Shown here: positions 58,782 through 64,000 of the stretch, piece by piece
How positions within the stretch are numbered: position 1 is the stretch's first letter
How the letters are laid out: every line of letters begins with the position of its first letter
Sequence record: NZ_CP035506.1
Length of the DNA: 64,000 nucleotides
Source: a plasmid
Strand: one strand, 5' to 3'
Translations under genes and position numbers: made by a program
The notes under the pieces: generated by a model
Told to the model about the DNA's origin: nothing
The model's database searches: none
What the model saw: only the letters and a program-made list of their open reading frames with translations

Positions 58782-59831
58782 TCACCCGATACCGAGATCC
58801 CGCGCCAGACGCAGGTATCCCTCCCCCAGCCGGTCGGGAGGCAGTTTCAGCAGCTGATCGAGCGCGCGGAGCGCGTCGCGCGTTCCCTTGAGTTCCGCCC
58901 GCGCCTCTGCCGAACGGATCCGCGGCAAAAGCCCCATCATCCGCAACCGGGCATAGGAATAGGTGCGCGCACGGATATCGGCGACCTGCGCCGGAGCCAG
59001 CCTGCCCGAGCCGAACTGCTTGGCGAAGATGAGGCCACGGTTCAGGATGCTCATCGCGGCGTGATGATACGGATCCGGCCGCCCGGCGGGGGCACGATGG
59101 TGATAGACCCGCGCCCGCCTTGCCGCCACGAGCGCACCGAACCGCATGGCCTGAAAGCTCGCGTCGATATCCTCGAACAGGCCGTAGCCCGCGAAAGCCT
59201 CCTCGAACCCGGAGGGGCGGATCGCCGCGGTGCGGAAGGACATGAGATAGCCGGTCATCCAGCCGACCTTCACCGCATCCTCCTCCTCCAGCCAGTCGGG
59301 AGCGGGCACGAGATCGGCAAGCGCATTGCCCATCGCGGGGAAAGGATTGCGGTCGGCGATGCCCCGTTCGAGCCGGTGCCGGAGCCGCTTCATCCGTGCC
59401 TCGCTCCGATGGGCATCGCTGATCTGGTAGCTGCGCCCCAGATCGATGCCGGGGGGCGGCTCGGGCGCATCGACGCAGCGCACGCCGGCGATCATCTCCT
59501 CCCCGTCCCGCTCATAGATGCGCAGGAGCGCCTCCGTCGTGCCCGGATGACAGAGGGAATCGTCGTCGGGGAAGAACACGACCGGGGCCGTCACTTCCGT
59601 CAGGCCGAGGTTGCGCTGCCGCGTCAGCCCCTTGGCCGACCGCATGAGGCGCAGCGGCACGTCGGACTGCGGGCGCAGCCGTTCGACCAGATCAGCAACG
59701 GGCGCCGCATCGTCCGAGCTGTCGACCACGATGATCCTTGAGGGCCGGCGGGACTGCCCGATCAGCAGGGGAAGGCAGAGTTCAAGCGCATCCGGGCGGT
59801 TTCGGGTAGCCACGACAACGTCGAAATCCAT
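58782..59831 (-). CDS. Glycosyltransferase family 2 (paralog of 28927..30021)
   Basis: VVATRNRPD...IIVVDSSDD...FFPDDDS. Shares long collinear segments with the 28927 gene (e.g. PDWLEE, GLFEDIDAS, YHH.AP). Confidence 0.7.
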   Translation of the reverse strand: MDFDVVVATRNRPDALELCLPLLIGQSRRPSRIIVVDSSDDAAPVADLVERLRPQSDVPLRLMRSAKGLTRQRNLGLTEVTAPVVFFPDDDSLCHPGTTEALLRIYERDGEEMIAGVRCVDAPEPPPGIDLGRSYQISDAHRSEARMKRLRHRLERGIADRNPFPAMGNALADLVPAPDWLEEEDAVKVGWMTGYLMSFRTAAIRPSGFEEAFAGYGLFEDIDASFQAMRFGALVAARRARVYHHRAPAGRPDPYHHAAMSILNRGLIFAKQFGSGRLAPAQVADIRARTYSYARLRMMGLLPRIRSAEARAELKGTRDALRALDQLLKLPPDRLGEGYLRLARDLGIG

Positions 59832-60080
59832 AAGTCTGGCAGCCCTTGCGCTAGTTCGTCCCCGCATCGGAAGGCCCCGATACATTCTTCAATATAAACG
59901 GAAGTTCGGGAAACACAAAGTGGGTTCTGCATTGCAGCATCGGAGGGCCGGCCTGCAGGCAGGGCTGTGCTTCGGGGCACTCCCCTCCGTGAGGAAAGCC
60001 CCTGCCCGCGCGGCCTCCCCCTCCCTCCCCGGCTCCCGCGGGTTGCCGGGGCCCGAAACGGCGCGATGAGGCGCAAGCGA

Positions 60081-60551
60081 TCAGGAAAAGATTTCCGCCC
60101 GGAGACGGGTGAGCAGGTTCTGACGGGAGAGGGACTCCTCCGCCTTCATGGGGGCGAGGTCCGGCTCCGACAGAAGGGCTTGCAGATCCTCGCGCGTCTC
60201 GGCGATGTGGATGCCGGGGATGCGGTTCATCTGGGAAACCGTCGCGAGCTGGTGATCGTTGCGGTGTTCGCCGAAGGCCACGCGCCGCGCCATCAGGACA
60301 AGGGGTTTCTCCGCCTTCAGCCCCGACAGGATCGTGCCGATCCCCGCATGGCCCACGATGACGCGGGCCGCGTCGAAATGCTGCTTGAACTCACGCGGGG
60401 CCAGGAAATCGACGCTTTCAAAGTTGGCAGGCTTCACGCGGGCATTGCCGATCTGTCCGAAGATGGCCTCCTGGAGGCTGGGCGCGACCTCGTCCATCGC
60501 CTTCACCAGACGATCGAACGGCAATTGGGTGCCAAGGGTCAGAAAGATCAT
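60081..60551 (-). CDS. Glycosyltransferase family 28 C-terminal-domain protein, Alg13/PssE/EpsF-like subunit
   Basis: MIFLTLGTQLPFDRL...VIVGHAGIGT motif. ATGA overlap with the upstream Alg14-like gene. Confidence 0.7.
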   Translation of the reverse strand: MIFLTLGTQLPFDRLVKAMDEVAPSLQEAIFGQIGNARVKPANFESVDFLAPREFKQHFDAARVIVGHAGIGTILSGLKAEKPLVLMARRVAFGEHRNDHQLATVSQMNRIPGIHIAETREDLQALLSEPDLAPMKAEESLSRQNLLTRLRAEIFS

Positions 60552-61024
60552 ATGACGCTTCCCCAGTAGGCCGGCTGGTTCTCCTTTTGCGCCAGATGTT
60601 CCCATTGTGTCAGGGTCACGTGACAGAATTTTCGGGCCAGCTTGCCGCTCAACGACAGCTTCTCGGAATTGGCGATGCTGTCGATCCAGATGGTCTTCGC
60701 CCCGAAGACCCGGCCCCAGAGCAGGCAAAGAAGCCCGGGAGCGGCGCCGGTGGACAGAATCACATCCGGTTTCAACCGGCTGACCAGAACGAAGGTCTCC
60801 CCCAGACCGCGCAGCATCTTCAGCGGTTCGTTCTGGTTGTAATCCCGGAGCGAAAGAAAGGCGGGCAGATCGTAATGCTCCGCCTGGCGGGCGTCGGTGC
60901 AGGCAAAGGTGACGCTCCCCCCCTCGAAGGCGGGGGCGATCTGCATGAGCTGCTCCCAGTGCCCTCCCGTTGATGCCACGGCCAGAATTTTGGGGCTGTG
61001 GGATGAGCCACTCTTCTTCATCAT
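60548..61024 (-). CDS. Alg14/PssD/EpsE-like glycosyltransferase membrane-anchor subunit
   Basis: KILAVASTGGHWEQL...VILSTGAAPG motif pattern of the Alg14 family. Confidence 0.7.
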   Translation of the reverse strand: MMKKSGSSHSPKILAVASTGGHWEQLMQIAPAFEGGSVTFACTDARQAEHYDLPAFLSLRDYNQNEPLKMLRGLGETFVLVSRLKPDVILSTGAAPGLLCLLWGRVFGAKTIWIDSIANSEKLSLSGKLARKFCHVTLTQWEHLAQKENQPAYWGSVI

Positions 61025-61485
61025 GGGGAGTTCTCGGCTGACAGGGTCACCCGCATGAAACCGGAAGTTCGCTCCGCGTGCAAGCGGTTGCAGGGGCTTT
61101 GGCGGCGCGTTCTTCGGCTTGGGCGGGAGAGAGGCTGCCCGGTCACAGGCCGGCGGGGGAAGCTGGGAATGTCATAGAAGATCGACAGGATGGAGATCGC
61201 TAGGCCGGGGGTCTGCAGGGTCGGGATCGCCAGGTCGGGGATCGCGCTCCAGGCGCTGGCCGGCCGGTGCTGGTCGGGAGGCGCTGGCCGGAAGACGCTG
61301 GCCGGGAGGCCGGGCCGGGAGTGGAGGCAGGAAGAATTCCGCATCCGCCTGATACCGCAGCGGCCATGCGGGGCGGACAGGCCAACGGCTGGCCTCACAT
61401 CTTCAAGGGCTGCTGGTTCAGATGCTGCTGGCGCGCGCAGTCCGGCGCGCAGGACATGTCTCCGTGCGGAGCGCTCATCCGACCC

Positions 61486-61505
61486 TGTTTCGCGCGCGAA
61501 ACATC
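61486..61505. promoter_or_regulatory. Perfect palindrome TGTTTCGCGCGCGAAACA(TC), copy 1 of 2
   Basis: Exact 20-bp repeat of the element at 62431..62450. Located downstream of the VPLPA-CTERM gene 61558..62064. Confidence 0.4.
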
Positions 61506-61557
61506 CGAAAGGAAAGACCGCCCGAAGGCGGCCTTTCCCGGCAAGGATAATCCGGTA

Positions 61558-62064
61558 TCAGGCGGCTTTGGCGTCCGACCGGCGGGTGCGGGAGACGATA
61601 CCCGCCGCGCCAAGGCCGGCCAGCAGCAGAAAACCGGCGGCCGGAAGCGGCACCGAGGACGGGGGCACCGCCTCGGATATCAGGGTGAGCGTCACGCCCA
61701 CCGGGCTGGCCACGCCGTCAAAGAAGGTGACGTAGAAATCTTCCGACGTCGTGAAGCTGGGCAGCGTCCCGCCGGCGGTGGCAAGCTGCGCACGCCCGAA
61801 GAAGGTGCCGAAGGTGCTCCAGGTATAGGCTTGACCGCCGTTGATGGAGAAGGTCACGTCGAGCAGATCGGTGAAATCGCCCGATCCGGCCAGACTGAAG
61901 TCGAAGGTCATCGGGCTGTCCACGATGACGTTGAAGACCACCGTGCCGCCCGGAGAGAGCACGTCGGTGGCCGAAGTCAGCTCGCCTGCAACCGGTGTTA
62001 TGGTGACCGCCGGAGCCGCGACGGGGAGTGCTGCAAGAAACGCAGCCGCGAGAAGATGTTTCAT
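61558..62064 (-). CDS. VPLPA-CTERM (PEP-CTERM variant) sorting-domain protein, secreted
   Basis: Signal peptide MKHLLAAAFLAALPVAAPA. C-terminus SVPLPAAGFLLLAGLGAAGIVSRTRRSDAKAA. AT-rich upstream region. Confidence 0.8.
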   Translation of the reverse strand: MKHLLAAAFLAALPVAAPAVTITPVAGELTSATDVLSPGGTVVFNVIVDSPMTFDFSLAGSGDFTDLLDVTFSINGGQAYTWSTFGTFFGRAQLATAGGTLPSFTTSEDFYVTFFDGVASPVGVTLTLISEAVPPSSVPLPAAGFLLLAGLGAAGIVSRTRRSDAKAA

Positions 62065-62430
62065 GTTGATCCTTATTGTTTGGGGTCGTCAGACCGCTTT
62101 GGGGGAGCGGAAAAACATTAATTCAACTTTTAGTAGCAAGACCAAGGTAACAAACTGAAAGAATTACAACAATAGGGTTAATACCGGATCTCAAATGCAT
62201 CTTAGATGTGCATTCCGTCAACAATTTAACAACCTTAAGGCGATCTTATGTAACAAAGACAACCTTTTCGTTTCTTGCCCCCCGCAGATGCCTCGGAAAC
62301 TCGCCTGACTGTTTTCCGATCCGCAAAGAACCGCCCCCCGGAATCCGGCGGATTGTTTACGGTGAGAGAGGCGCGCCCCGCCTGCCCTGCCCTCCACAGA
62401 CCCGGTCCGCGTGAAGCTACGATTCGGGAA

Positions 62431-62450
62431 TGTTTCGCGCGCGAAACATC
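62431..62450. promoter_or_regulatory. Perfect palindrome TGTTTCGCGCGCGAAACA(TC), copy 2 of 2
   Basis: Identical to 61486..61505. Lies upstream of the VPLPA-CTERM promoter region and just past the 3' end of repA. Confidence 0.4.
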
Positions 62451-62453
62451 GGG

Positions 62454-63542
62454 TCAGCCCTTCTCTGCCGCCCGCGCCCGGACATAGCCGAGGAAGGCCT
62501 TCCGGGCGGAGGCCAGCCGCGGCCGCCCGGTCGCGGCCCAGTAGCGCCGCCAGTCCGCCTCCAGCGCATAGATATCCCAGCCGGGGGCCAGCGCCCGCGC
62601 CTCCTCGATCGCCTCGGGCGTGAGCTGCGGCGCGCCGAGCGGCGTGCGCGCCCGCTCCACCACCTCGCGCGGCGTGACGCGGAGCACATCGCCCGCCTCC
62701 TCCGCCAGTGTGTAATCGGGCAGGGTATCGGCGGCGATCATGTCGCGGATCATCTTGCGGAACACCCGGCGGGGAGAGGCGGAACCGGATTTCTTGTGCA
62801 GCACCTCGATCGACACCCGCCATTCCGGCTGCCGCCCGCAGTGCTTGCGCGCCAGCTCATAGACCCGCCGCTCCAGCGGCTTCCTGAGCCGGAAGTAGTC
62901 CCGCGAAAGCGTCAGGACCGATTTCGACAGCACGGCCCGGTAGAGCCAGTCCGACAGGGTGACGGAGACGGAGATCATCCGCCCGCCCCGGCTATGCCGC
63001 ACGATCTGCCAGGCCTCGATCATGCCGAAGCCGGTGGTCGTCTCGGTTTCTCCGGTCACCATGTTGGTGGTGATGCGGGTCCCCGCCAGCCGCTCGAAGG
63101 CCTCGCGGAGCCGCTGGTAGCCGTCGCCCGACGCCTCCCGCCCCGTGGCCGCCATCAGGTCCGCCGCCTTGAGCCGGAGACTCCGCGACACCGGGCGACC
63201 GGCGTTGATCGCGGCCATGAGCTGGCTCACGCAGAAGATCAGGATGTCCTTGTCGTGGATCGTGGCGAGGCCGCGGACGGAGGGGGTCACCGTGATCTCC
63301 ACCCCGTTATGGGCATAGGCGAGGATGCGCAGGTCCGGCCGGGTGGAGAGCGAGAACATCGGATGCTCCATGCTCCCCAGATCGTCCTTGGGCAGCGCAT
63401 CGAAGATATCCGCCACGAAGAAGCCGCCCCGCGGCAGTTCGGCCGGAAGGCTCGCAGCGGGCGCAGTTCCGGGCACAGTTTTGGGCACCGGCAGCCCCTC
63501 CGCCCGCGGGGGTTTTCGGCGGCGGGAACCGGCGGCCGTCAT
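62454..63542 (-). CDS. repA: Plasmid-type replication initiator protein (RepA, RPA family)
   Basis: N-terminal motif GGFFVADIFDALPKDDLGSMEHPMFSLS, characteristic of the replication initiator protein A family of alphaproteobacterial replicons. 362 aa. Confidence 0.6.
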   Translation of the reverse strand: MTAAGSRRRKPPRAEGLPVPKTVPGTAPAASLPAELPRGGFFVADIFDALPKDDLGSMEHPMFSLSTRPDLRILAYAHNGVEITVTPSVRGLATIHDKDILIFCVSQLMAAINAGRPVSRSLRLKAADLMAATGREASGDGYQRLREAFERLAGTRITTNMVTGETETTTGFGMIEAWQIVRHSRGGRMISVSVTLSDWLYRAVLSKSVLTLSRDYFRLRKPLERRVYELARKHCGRQPEWRVSIEVLHKKSGSASPRRVFRKMIRDMIAADTLPDYTLAEEAGDVLRVTPREVVERARTPLGAPQLTPEAIEEARALAPGWDIYALEADWRRYWAATGRPRLASARKAFLGYVRARAAEKG

Positions 63543-64000
63543 GCCCCCCGCCCCCGGCTGCCGCCCGGTTCCGCAGCCTGTGCCGCGCCTGTCTTCCGCA
63601 TCTGCCCGACCCTCTCCGGTCCCCTCTGACGGGGTGACTCGTTTCGTGGTTTCAATGACACCCTAGAAAGCGCGCGTCCTTCCGTCCAGCGCCGCGGGGG
63701 AGGGCGATGCAGATCCTGCGGCCCGCCGAGCGTGGGATCGGAATCGGAGCGACGTGGTTTCCGAGTCGGAGAAACGGGGTTTCGGATTCACTCCTGCGCC
63801 TGCGAGCCGCCGCTCACCCCGTGAATTCAGGGCTTTGCGGAAAGGGCGTGATCCCGTAACTATGAAATAACTCCATACCTAACACCGCCCGCCGCTGGAG
63901 CCGTGACAAGCGCGCCACAAATGAACGAAAAATTGCGCGGGCCCCTCCTTCGGAACCCCTTTATTTGCTGAGAAAAAATCGGCTGTGTTCGCTTTTCTGT

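Follow-up and report, generated by a model that had tools for sequence, protein, structure and literature searches.

The systems closest to the one described here are the parS sites of chromosomes and of repABC plasmids, and the maintenance module of RepA-I plasmids. Canonical chromosomal parS is a 16-bp site with a CACGTG core; it is found at oriC, it belongs with Spo0J/ParB, and its consensus is TGTTNCACGTGAAACA (PMC7022226). The related repABC replicons have several parS sites which are variably placed, with the Cevallos consensus GTTNNCNGCNGNNAAC and a relaxed search pattern, GTTNNNNGCNNNNAAC (PMC9040568). Palindromes of this kind are diagnostic for the RepABC-1 to -9 plasmids of Rhodobacterales, pAMI4 of Paracoccus aminophilus being a repABC example (PMC9040568, PMC11107812). 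In the published scheme of the RepA-I module the origin lies between repA and parAB (PMC5030684). In the literature that we searched, only RepABC palindromes were found and no motif string or palindrome of RepA-I-type plasmids; the RepA-type classification of Petersen 2011 lay outside this search. Here we have analysed a pair of identical palindromes in a plasmid sequence of 64,000 nucleotides, the whole of which is referred to as the window. Judging from sequence comparison, they very probably serve the plasmid's own ParABS system, a partition system of type Ia, as centromere sites of the parS type.

Results

The window contains exactly two copies of the perfect 18-bp palindrome TGTTTCGCGCGCGAAACA (Table 1). 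The identity of the two sites extends to the 20-mer TGTTTCGCGCGCGAAACATC, at 61486-61505 and 62431-62450, and the copy at 62431 can be read further, as the perfect 20-bp palindrome ATGTTTCGCGCGCGAAACAT. By chance, 0.02 matches would be expected, and none of 100 shuffles of the window gave two matches. There were no further matches to the 18-mer in the window, even at three mismatches, and the approximately 61 kb away from the two sites are free of copies. On these points the preliminary description was borne out, as it was on the position of the copies, which do bracket a VPLPA-CTERM gene together with a stretch that is truly AT-rich. Its further inverted repeat, AATGCA-N9-TGCATT, is present as well; the arms are only 6 bp long and nothing else spoke for it. 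No promoter was called at the palindromes by the promoter scan and no terminator by the terminator scan. Folded as RNA, the palindromes give a stem of 7-9 bp without a U-tract (-8 to -13 kcal/mol with flanks, z = -0.6 to -1.6), and no Rfam match was obtained in the window or in seven loci bearing the motif or the composite element described below.

Table 1. Features at the repA end of the window
Feature	Coordinates	Strand	Evidence or remark
Second putative parS-type site	61486..61503	.	950 nt past repA stop, downstream of VPLPA-CTERM gene and its terminator
Terminator-like hairpin of VPLPA gene	61511..61538	-	12-13 bp G+C-rich stem, UUCG loop
VPLPA-CTERM small secreted protein gene, 168 aa	61558..62064	-	TIGR03370 E=1e-6
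AT-rich stretch upstream of VPLPA gene	62075..62299	.	GC 0.40 vs 0.62-0.79 around (composition profile)
Minor inverted repeat AATGCA-N9-TGCATT	62194-62214		in AT-rich stretch; 6-bp arms only
repA-proximal putative parS-type site (TGTTTCGCGCGCGAAACA)	62431..62448	.	5 nt past repA stop codon
repA, plasmid replication initiator (RPA family, RepA-I-like)	62454..63542	-	Pfam PF10134 E=3.2e-99
repA-parA intergenic region, cut by window end	63543..64000	.	layout in relatives and contig L004

The replicon is a Rhodobacterales RepA-type (RepA-I-like) plasmid. Its RepA is 68-72% identical to RepA of RepA-type plasmids of Cereibacter, Dinoroseobacter and Phaeobacter, and the gene set and order, repA, origin and divergent parAB, are those of the Rhodobacteraceae RepA-I module in the classification of Petersen (PMC5030684). 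By analogy with this module, the origin would be located in the repA-parA spacer, in which neither iterons nor DnaA-type repeats were clearly resolved. Polysaccharide-biosynthesis cargo is present in the window; the rhamnose operon rfbABCD, which 'biofilm plasmids' such as P. inhibens pPGA1_65 typically carry, was not found in it.

The window ends just short of the divergent parA-parB operon, with parA starting about 95 bp beyond. A contig which is 99.9% identical (L004; 4 mismatches in 2,929 overlapping bp) runs past this end, and parA, parB and four of the six palindrome copies were read from that contig and not from the window. On it, the six copies lie within 5.6 kb around repA-parA-parB, which 0 of 200 shuffles could reach. 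They are placed directly past repA, 950 nt past the repA stop, at both ends of the parA-parB spacer, directly past parB (with one mismatch) and 94 nt past parB. The spacer bounded by two of the copies is unusually long (337 nt), and one copy lies 21 nt upstream of parB. Those copies of the replicon that are found 0-5 nt past the stop codons of repA, parA and parB mark gene 3' ends and not promoters. The presence of one to several palindromic sites within or next to the par operon is a feature shared with type-Ia systems.

The two partition proteins could both be assigned. ParA (464 aa) matches PF13614 (5e-29), TIGR03453 partition_RepA (4e-59) and SopA (2.5e-25) and is 77-84% identical to its RepA-I-type relatives; a Walker-type ATPase gene adjoins the palindromes, as in type-Ia ParABS. 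As a single sequence, ParB matched TIGR03454 RepB (1e-13) and TIGR00180 (3.6e-6), both below the curated family thresholds, and had no Pfam match and no PDB match; it carries an insertion of about 36 aa. A profile built from 21 ParB orthologs matched Noc (7OL9, 7NG0) and H. pylori Spo0J-parS (4UMK, E=1.4e-5), the matches spanning the N-terminal and the DNA-binding domains. Pfam ParB_N (PF02195) was matched by 15 of these 21 orthologs, and in their alignment GLISGWRR, the arginine patch, is invariant, as is EENEIR within the conserved MVEENEIR box. The gene beside parA encodes a ParB/RepB-family protein with the ParB N-terminal fold and a helix-turn-helix domain, again as in type-Ia systems.

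How does the palindrome compare with the described parS sites? The six outer bases of each arm (TGTTTC...GAAACA) are identical to those of canonical chromosomal parS, and with the variable central dinucleotide taken out the 18-mer becomes TGTTTCGCGCGAAACA, which matches canonical parS but for the symmetric change A7G/T10C. However, the site is 18 bp long instead of 16, has the core CGC-NN-GCG in place of CACGTG and holds its half-sites 2 bp further apart, and so it is not a canonical parS. As with chromosomal parS, copies can sit inside genes, but they cluster at a plasmid maintenance module and not at oriC, and the protein that corresponds to Spo0J/ParB is a divergent, plasmid RepB-like ParB whose relationship is detectable by profile only.

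For ParA and ParB of the replicon, the nearest counterparts are RepA and RepB of repABC (TIGR03453 4e-59, TIGR03454 1e-13). With the repABC parS sites the palindromes share the GTT...AAC type, the presence of 2-6 copies placed variably within, between or downstream of the maintenance genes and the occasional distant or intragenic copy. Nevertheless, the inner 16-mer, GTTTCGCGCGCGAAAC, departs from the repABC consensus GTTNNCNGCNGNNAAC at positions 6 and 11, where it has G and C and the consensus has C and G. It fits the relaxed pattern GTTNNNNGCNNNNAAC only, and natural variants of the site whose centre is AT or GT fall outside that one too; moreover, the conserved unit is 18 bp and not the 16 bp of the repABC consensus. 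The replicases also differ: repABC has RepC in one operon, whereas here an RPA-family RepA is encoded and parAB is divergent from the replicase gene.

The site is not peculiar to this plasmid. The motif was found on 132 sequenced plasmids, and about 30 further repA/parAB modules of Rhodobacterales have the core GTTTCGC-NN-GCGAAAC at equivalent positions. In these loci, which hold RepA, ParA or ParB homologs, it is placed in the parA-parB spacer, 0-180 nt past parB or 5-150 nt past repA. Most copies in most modules are in the parA-parB spacer or directly past parB, which can place them as far as 3 kb from the repA-parA spacer; sites past repA were also seen in P. inhibens pPGA1_65 and in three further loci (L021, L098 and L117). 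The complete 65-kb plasmid pPGA1_65, the RepA-I archetype, has just two sites, which bracket the module. The six copies on the near-identical contig exceed the two to four of most relatives, and the unusually long parA-parB spacer is a further difference from other RepA-I plasmids. Positions 2-8 and 11-17 of the palindrome are invariant, while variation is confined to the outermost base and to the centre, which is CG, AT or GT and in some cases asymmetric; invariant arms with a variable centre fit recognition by a protein and not the pairing of a stem. Some copies lie inside coding sequence, namely in parB and, at a fixed position with diverged flanking codons, in rfbD.

The association with ParB was also seen in a sample of plasmids chosen by ParB likeness and not by the motif. 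GTTTCGC-NN-GCGAAAC was present in the module of nine of the ten homology-sampled plasmids with a ParB at least 43% identical; the one exception, plas4 of Alloyangia, which belongs to the RepA-I tier, had no site within the 9.5 kb examined. Five plasmids with a ParB at most 43% identical were without the core. Two of these five, from more distant ParB clades, have other palindromes directly past parB, GTTACCGGCCGGTAAC and two copies of GGTAACCCATGGGTTACC, and no convincing repeated site was recognized in the stretches examined near parAB of the 78-kb and 262-kb Phaeobacter replicons, Paracoccus pNSM5TCb and Alloyangia plas4. In Pacificitalea pDY25-C, where Rep is another protein, ParB is 43% identical and two copies of the core flank parAB. 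The site follows the ParB lineage, with the single exception mentioned, and not the replicase.

A genome scan revealed the exact 18-mer in at least 120 stretches across Rhodobacterales, some of them chromosomal. Among the matches listed, about 88 had no RepA, ParA or ParB homolog in the 8-kb block, at least 25 were on contigs longer than 300 kb, complete chromosomes included, and chromosomal contigs of about 15 roseobacter species carried the 18-mer far from par genes. The copies per genome in other genera numbered 1-4 among the matches listed, these being minimum values. In Marivita, Leisingera, Cribrihabitans, Arenibacterium and others, the 18-mer is often the core of a composite element of 60-95 bp in which it is enclosed by two mini-hairpins, in a subset with a CtrA-box-like TTAA-N7-TTAA on one side, and outside this element similarity stops sharply. 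The copies in the window lack such hairpin flanks. Many dispersed copies are flanked by AAA and TTT, and the intergenic copies that could be resolved among the matches listed (n=56) showed a 3'-end bias, with 23 between convergent, 28 between tandem and 5 between divergent genes. No gene family recurred beside the copies outside par modules; clustering of ORFs gave local synteny among Leisingera species only.

Is there any relation between the palindromes and the VPLPA-CTERM gene that they bracket? The gene and its promoter had been suggested in the preliminary description as their target. This was not supported: the copies mark gene 3' ends, none of the 132 plasmids with the motif was among PLSDB plasmids with a homolog of the VPLPA gene, no link to VPLPA or PEP-CTERM genes emerged and the motif tracks ParAB modules. 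A VPLPA-CTERM homolog was found in 0 of 72,556 PLSDB plasmids and in none of the about 30 other modules with putative parS sites, and no DNA similar to the AT-rich stretch was found in PLSDB. We had also considered a mobile cassette, or another tie between the motif and the VPLPA-CTERM gene, and rejected it, as the PLSDB plasmids have neither a protein nor a DNA homolog. The terminator-like hairpin of the gene is located between its stop codon and the palindrome, and its stem dominates the RNA fold of 61476-61560 on the minus strand (-36.5 kcal/mol, z = -2.1). At the other end, the palindrome copy at 62431 is 367 nt upstream of the start codon, and no sigma-70-like promoter was called in the AT-rich region. 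Most likely, the VPLPA-CTERM gene is bystander cargo lying between two putative parS copies, and the palindromes are not its switches.

Discussion

If the palindromes are the parS sites of this replicon, ParB/RepB-family dimers would recognize the half-sites GTTTCGC through the helix-turn-helix domain. ParB would load at the sites as a CTP-dependent clamp and spread over the neighbouring few kilobases, and the ParA ATPase would then move the partition complex, providing every daughter cell with a copy. A function as incompatibility determinants would also be expected of the sites, and par autoregulation could depend in part on the copy that precedes parB by 21 nt. Situated inside the ParB-loaded zone, the VPLPA-CTERM gene would experience at most mild silencing by ParB spreading. 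The earlier idea of a site for a dimeric regulator is supported in one part: the palindrome is best read as a symmetric site to which a dimeric protein would bind, and the bridging and condensation of DNA are known properties of ParB-parS complexes.

The other part, the assignment to the Crp/Fnr class or to enhancer-binding proteins, with a loop between the copies controlling the VPLPA-CTERM gene and its AT-rich promoter, appears exceedingly improbable. It draws on the dyad symmetry of two 6-bp arms around a spacer of 6 bp, and on the way the copies bracket the gene and its AT-rich upstream region. However, the sequence departs from both the Crp consensus, TGTGA-N6-TCACA, and the Fnr consensus, TTGAT-N4-ATCAA, and the palindromes are not placed upstream of a promoter as such operators are: one is downstream of the VPLPA terminator, the other abuts the repA stop far from the VPLPA start, and no sigma-70-like promoter was called in the region. 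There are four more copies around parA and parB, divergent promoter regions are poor in dispersed copies (5 of 56 among the matches listed) and the 132 motif plasmids encode no VPLPA homolog. Could the palindromes instead act in RNA, as terminators or stabilizing hairpins at the 3' ends of the repA, parA and parB transcripts? Their location 0-5 nt past three stop codons, the general 3'-end bias and the AAA/TTT flanks of many copies elsewhere would suit this, yet an intrinsic terminator has a G+C-rich stem and a U-tract, and the hairpin here is weak and unexceptional, has no U-tract and was not called by the scan, while the neighbouring VPLPA gene possesses its own, much stronger terminator. 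Copies upstream of parB and within coding sequences also speak against it, as does the non-compensatory variation (an asymmetric GT centre, outermost-base changes on one arm), and we regard action at the RNA level as very improbable. The chances are similarly slight that RepA and not ParB binds the sites, in replication control or handcuffing, or that they serve replication termination or multimer resolution. One copy is directly past repA, copies past repA recur in other RepA-type plasmids and the cluster surrounds the presumed origin. On the other hand, Pacificitalea pDY25-C has the same core beside parAB with a replicase of another family, most copies are at the parA-parB spacer or past parB, up to 3 kb from the presumed origin spacer, the canonical ParB site has the same arms and no recombinase is consistently adjacent.

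More questions are raised by the copies outside plasmid modules. A REP- or MITE-like dispersed palindrome, structural or selfish DNA gathering in intergenic DNA with no role in partition, would account for much of what was seen there: the at least 120 stretches in Rhodobacterales, with about 88 lacking rep/par homologs and at least 25 on contigs above 300 kb among the matches listed, the 60-95 bp composite with its mini-hairpins and sharp bounds, the preference for gene 3' ends (23 convergent, 28 tandem and 5 divergent, among the matches listed) and the lack of a recurrent neighbouring gene family. A common dispersed repeat had been named at the outset as a possibility that would speak against a specific role, and it was found in so far as the motif occurs at at least 120 places, some of them chromosomal. 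Its likeness to REP, BIME and MITE elements, as a short, intergenic composite, is limited to these dispersed chromosomal copies. REP elements are by definition not inside coding sequences, and they occur in tens to hundreds of copies per genome; the palindromes of the window do not conform to this. On plasmids the copies are few and located around the rep/par module only (2 in the 64-kb window, 2 in the 65-kb pPGA1_65) and some are inside the coding sequences of parB and rfbD, which argues that they are not of the REP type there. Counts per genome among the matches listed are in single digits, the core is strictly conserved, without compensatory stem changes, and identical to the par-module site, the window copies have no hairpin flanks, and the site co-varies with the ParB clade and follows ParB across replicase types. 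We therefore consider it improbable that the palindromes of the window are such an element.

The chromosomal copies far from par genes do indicate that the motif also exists, or has come to exist, independently of plasmid par modules. We would suggest, very tentatively and as something rather unlikely, that a plasmid-type parS has escaped to chromosomes, either as a mobile element carrying a centromere-like site or with the ParB of RepA-I plasmids also binding the chromosome. A chromosome-binding ParB might bring about cross-replicon tethering, ParB titration or cell-cycle coupling. If such an escape took place, there would be a wider network of ParB sites with the window copies at its plasmid end, and if ParB bound the composite elements on chromosomes, this would suggest that plasmid and chromosome engage in cross-talk.

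As putative centromere sites, the palindromes are an ordinary feature of a plasmid, though a nicely resolved one. In RepA-I-type plasmids, on which many roseobacters and Cereibacter have genes for biofilm and exopolysaccharide, GTTTCGC-NN-GCGAAAC probably acts as the centromere and determines incompatibility. It may be of use for stable vectors and plasmid-curing constructs, for predicting compatibility and for recognizing plasmid contigs in draft assemblies and metagenomes. With the arms of canonical parS, one symmetric base change and a half-site spacing 2 bp wider, the site would also offer a natural test of ParB specificity.

Results

The preliminary description had reported a pair of identical palindromes flanking a VPLPA-CTERM gene and an AT-rich stretch, and both points are borne out. 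The 18-bp perfect palindrome TGTTTCGCGCGCGAAACA occurs twice within a shared 20-mer, and the coordinates and GC profile place the ORF and the AT-rich stretch between the copies. These two are the only matches in the 64-kb window with up to three mismatches allowed; dinucleotide-preserving shuffles gave a mean of 0.02 matches each and two matches in 0 of 100. The inverted repeat AATGCA-N9-TGCATT that had also been pointed out is present, without any further support. The longest perfect palindrome in the window is the 22-bp GAACTGTTCGGCCGAACAGTTC, apparently within a long ORF and unrelated in sequence to the 18-mer.

The right-hand copy lies 5 nt from the end of repA, whose DNA is similar to repA on Cereibacter, Rhodobacter, Dinoroseobacter, Leisingera and Phaeobacter plasmids. 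The annotated order in those relatives is always repA, a spacer of ~400-800 bp and a divergent parA-parB operon; in the RepA-I-type module of Rhodobacteraceae the origin is drawn between repA and parAB (PMC5030684). The window ends inside the repA-parA spacer, and everything past position 64000 is inferred from L004, a metagenome contig which has an identical RepA protein and 4 mismatches in the 2,929 bp overlapping window positions 61072-64000, and which is a near-identical replicon from another assembly. L004 goes on to parA, starting ~95 bp past the window end, and then parB. Six copies of the 18-mer lie within 5.6 kb of this contig, all perfect except for one which has a single mismatch, and this number was reached in 0 of 200 shuffles. 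In the remaining ~61 kb of the window there is no copy; the pair described earlier is therefore one end of a cluster which decorates the module. The parA-parB spacer is long (337 nt versus ~60-140 nt in relatives) and has a copy at either end; a 113-aa ORF called in it gave no family matches and is probably not a gene.

Location of the features discussed (window coordinates unless a locus, L, is named; L004 is the overlapping contig)
Feature	Location	Strand	Remarks
Palindrome copy 1	62431-62448 (20-mer to 62450)		5 nt past repA stop
Palindrome copy 2	61486-61503 (20-mer to 61505)		950 nt past repA stop
Palindrome copy 3	L004		abuts parA stop
Palindrome copy 4	L004		21 nt 5' of parB start
Palindrome copy 5	L004		single mismatch; abuts parB stop
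Palindrome copy 6	L004		94 nt past parB stop
repA, plasmid replication initiator	62454-63542	-	RPA/RepA family, PF10134, E=3.2e-99
parA-parB spacer	L004 7699-8053 (~65844-65490)
Putative ParB, 379 aa	L004 6559-7698 (~66984-65845)	-
VPLPA-CTERM ORF, 168 aa	61558-62064	-	TIGR03370, E=1e-6; PEP-CTERM Pfam, E=5e-4
Terminator of the VPLPA gene	61511-61538		far stronger than palindrome hairpin
AT-rich stretch	62075-62299		GC 0.40 vs 0.62-0.79 nearby
AATGCA-N9-TGCATT	62194-62214
Polysaccharide-biosynthesis genes	58782-61024	-	GT2, GT28 C-terminal domain, Alg14-like; downstream of maintenance module
22-bp palindrome	27287-27308
Copies inside rfbD	L128 9231; L130 7005; L137 6448		dTDP-4-dehydrorhamnose reductase gene
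Dispersed copies (among others)	L007 2978; L008 6530; L012 7224; L016 7331; L022 71; L043 4979; L102 4199; L103 1554; L119 2406
Marivita-type extended copies	L007, L012, L016, L028, L051, L056, L072, L082, L099, L103		from alignment
GTTACCGGCCGGTAAC, C. sphaeroides p.B	L135 5381-5396		right past parB
GGTAACCCATGGGTTACC, Pseudosulfitobacter	L136 5379-5396; 5452-5469		right past parB
Solitary ParB-like gene, pDSHI02	L002 333-1457
AAACCTTCCCCGCGGGGAAGGTTT, pDSHI02	L002 397-420; 2486-2511

The 464-aa ParA belongs to the large partition ATPases of Walker type (TIGR03453, 4e-59; PRK13705, 2.5e-25; PF13614, 5e-29), and its nearest relatives are RepA of repABC systems and SopA. As a single sequence the putative ParB scored under the cut-off with TIGR03454 RepB (1e-13) and TIGR00180 (3.6e-6) and had no match in Pfam or PDB. 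A profile of 21 orthologs from the gathered loci matches Noc (7OL9, 7NG0, 7NFU) and the H. pylori Spo0J-parS complex (4UMK, E=1.4e-5), plus sulfiredoxin, over the N-terminal and DNA-binding regions. Pfam ParB_N is matched individually by 15 of the 21. Invariant across their alignment are the arginine patch GLISGWRR, the canonical ParB counterpart of which is GERRxRA, and the box MVEENEIR-x-LS-x-ERA. The poor single-sequence scores are explained by an insertion of ~36 residues (FRSDLHLSSADGETRGRVMGQGDAARDAAPETG...) in the N-terminal domain of the window replicon's ParB, just ahead of GLISGWRR, which is missing from 20 orthologs.

Scanning one genome per species brought up at least 120 stretches with the exact 18-mer, nearly all from Rhodobacterales; ~9 would be expected by chance over the entire 596-Gb collection, and two Bacteroidota matches fit that number. 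RepA, ParA or ParB homologs are present in ~32 of the loci listed (ParA 77-84%, RepA 52-79% and ParB 38-58% identical), and the sites there recur in the parA-parB spacer, 0-180 nt past the parB stop and 5-150 nt past the repA stop, with a few within parB itself. Both C. sphaeroides plasmid b and Rhodobacter sp. CZR27 have two identical copies of the 18-mer between parA and parB, and D. shibae pDSHI02 has the variant TGTTTCGCATGCGAAACA 45 nt past parB. In PLSDB the motif is found on 132 plasmids, chiefly 65-140 kb replicons of Phaeobacter, Leisingera and Cereibacter. The complete pPGA1_65 of P. inhibens DSM 17395 (65,245 bp) has only two sites at up to three mismatches, and they bracket the module, one just past repA (centre AT) and the other 1.5 kb past parB (centre GT).

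When plasmids were chosen by RepA or ParB homology and not by motif, a sample without bias from selection on the motif, GTTTCGC-NN-GCGAAAC was found in the module of nine of the ten with a ParB at least 43% identical (Cereibacter, Rhodobacter, Dinoroseobacter, Phaeobacter, Gemmobacter, Sulfitobacter W027, Tateyamaria, Tritonibacter and Pacificitalea); the lone exception was Alloyangia plas4, with no site in the 9.5 kb examined. Pacificitalea pDY25-C, with a ParB 43% identical, has a replicase of another family and yet carries two copies of GGTTTCGCATGCGAAACC, 91 nt before parA and 12 nt past parB; the site goes with ParAB and not with RepA. With more distant ParB clades (five examined) the motif is absent, and two of these five plasmids have different palindromes at the equivalent place past parB: C. 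sphaeroides p.B (ParB 37%) carries GTTACCGGCCGGTAAC, and a DnaA-like plasmid of Pseudosulfitobacter (ParB 31%) carries GGTAACCCATGGGTTACC twice. Both are candidate parS sites of other Rhodobacterales ParB clades, and this is the pattern expected of co-evolving ParB-parS pairs. pDSHI02 also has a second, solitary ParB-like gene (32% identical), and nearby are two copies of yet another perfect palindrome of 24-26 bp, AAACCTTCCCCGCGGGGAAGGTTT; gene and palindrome are possibly a further ParB/site pair.

Positions 2-8 and 11-17 are invariant across all sites, and only the central dinucleotide (CG, AT or asymmetric GT) and the outermost base vary, the latter often in one arm only; these are not compensatory stem changes. 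As an RNA hairpin the palindrome is unremarkable (z = -0.6 to -1.6), has no U-tract, and had no match in an Rfam search. The 24-mer AAA-TGTTTCGCGCGCGAAACA-TTT lies at the same position in the rfbD coding sequence of three Sulfitobacter plasmids with diverged flanking codons, which is a DNA-level constraint inside the gene. One of the three plasmids is 242 kb in size and has no RepA typing.

Discussion

We consider it very probable, from comparison of sequences, that the palindromes are the parS centromere sites of the ParABS system of a RepA-I-type plasmid. The observations behind this are the sequence, number, placement and conservation of the sites, their co-variation with ParB and the family assignments of ParA and ParB. 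The arms TGTTTC/GAAACA are shared with the canonical chromosomal parS, TGTTNCACGTGAAACA (PMC7022226). Without its variable centre the 18-mer becomes a 16-mer which differs from canonical parS only by the symmetric A7G/T10C change; given the identical arms and the extra centre, the half-sites are near-canonical and spaced 2 bp wider. At positions 6 and 11 the inner 16-mer departs from the strict repABC consensus GTTNNCNGCNGNNAAC, and it is compatible only with the relaxed repABC pattern (PMC9040568). Such palindromes are cis-acting partition anchors and compatibility markers, whose copies may be multiple and variably placed (PMC9040568; for Rhodobacterales RepABC, PMC11107812, PMC9426580, PMC3910702). 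Our literature search did not find the palindrome of RepA-I-type modules, although it may have been described earlier, the primary classification paper lying outside the search.

Could the pair instead serve the gene which it flanks? Of the mechanism suggested in the preliminary description, only the broad notion that a dimeric protein binds the DNA stands; looping around the VPLPA gene by a Crp/Fnr-type or enhancer-binding-protein operator is unsupported. Neither a homolog of this gene nor a DNA match to its 1-kb region was found among 72,556 plasmids (PLSDB), and its place between the two sites is therefore incidental. Post-repA or post-parB copy pairs are only 41-61 bp apart in some relatives. 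The gene looks like recently acquired cargo put in beside a post-repA parS site; that it was inserted near the post-repA sites is perhaps so, and speculation. The stretch upstream of it has 40% GC in a replicon of 64% GC. No rfbABCD rhamnose operon, a usual feature of RepA-I 'biofilm plasmids', occurs in the window.

More questions are raised by the dispersed copies. No rep or par homolog occurs in the 8-kb block of ~88 of the at least 120 scanned loci, some of which probably sit on plasmid contigs whose module falls outside the block; example loci encode capsule or EPS export, with up to four copies. At least 25 loci are on contigs above 300 kb, complete chromosomes of 3.9-4.5 Mb among them, and chromosomal contigs of ~15 roseobacter species carry the identical 18-mer in low copy number, 1-4 per genome among the matches listed, which is a lower bound. 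The motif is therefore also found outside par modules. The dispersed copies have no recurrent neighbour gene, only assorted housekeeping genes, and are biased towards the 3' ends of genes (23 intergenic copies lie between convergent genes, 28 between tandem and 5 between divergent ones; 6 more are inside an ORF). Frequently they form a composite, ATAGGTC(C/A)G-N-C(G/T)GACC-nAA-18mer-TTn-GGTC...GACCTAT, ~60 bp in which the 18-mer stands between mini-hairpin GGTCNG-N-CNGACC and a second one, with TA at both bounds; mini-hairpins are ~70-fold enriched beside the 18-mer (27 within 12 nt versus 39 in the other 924 kb). Marivita-type copies have a one-sided extension, TTAACC-N-TTTGTTAAC, after which similarity stops abruptly. 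TTAA-N7-TTAA, which has the form of a CtrA box, is enriched >100-fold around the non-par sites: 13 of 98 have it within 80 nt (0.75 per kb versus 0.006 elsewhere). The composite may represent a small element, mobile or REP-like, with a parS-type core, or its copies could be a set of chromosomal ParB targets. The same hairpin flanks surround true par-module sites in Phaeobacter, Cribrihabitans and Tritonibacter; they are absent at the window's two copies. We retain the parS reading of the window's sites despite the dispersed copies because of the clustering at the module, the copies inside coding sequences, the co-variation with ParB and the lack of composite flanks.

By analogy with established ParABS biology, ParB dimers would bind the GTTTCGC half-sites, where they would be loaded as CTP-dependent clamps before spreading onto adjacent DNA, and ParA would then segregate the ParB-DNA complexes; the sites would also be incompatibility determinants. 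The copy 5' of parB may add to autoregulation, and the VPLPA-CTERM gene, inside the ParB-loaded zone, would experience mild silencing at most. The RepA-I-type parS sites would be a new case of a well-known class of site, or at least one not easily found in the literature, and of all these features only the chromosomal composite elements might prove surprising.
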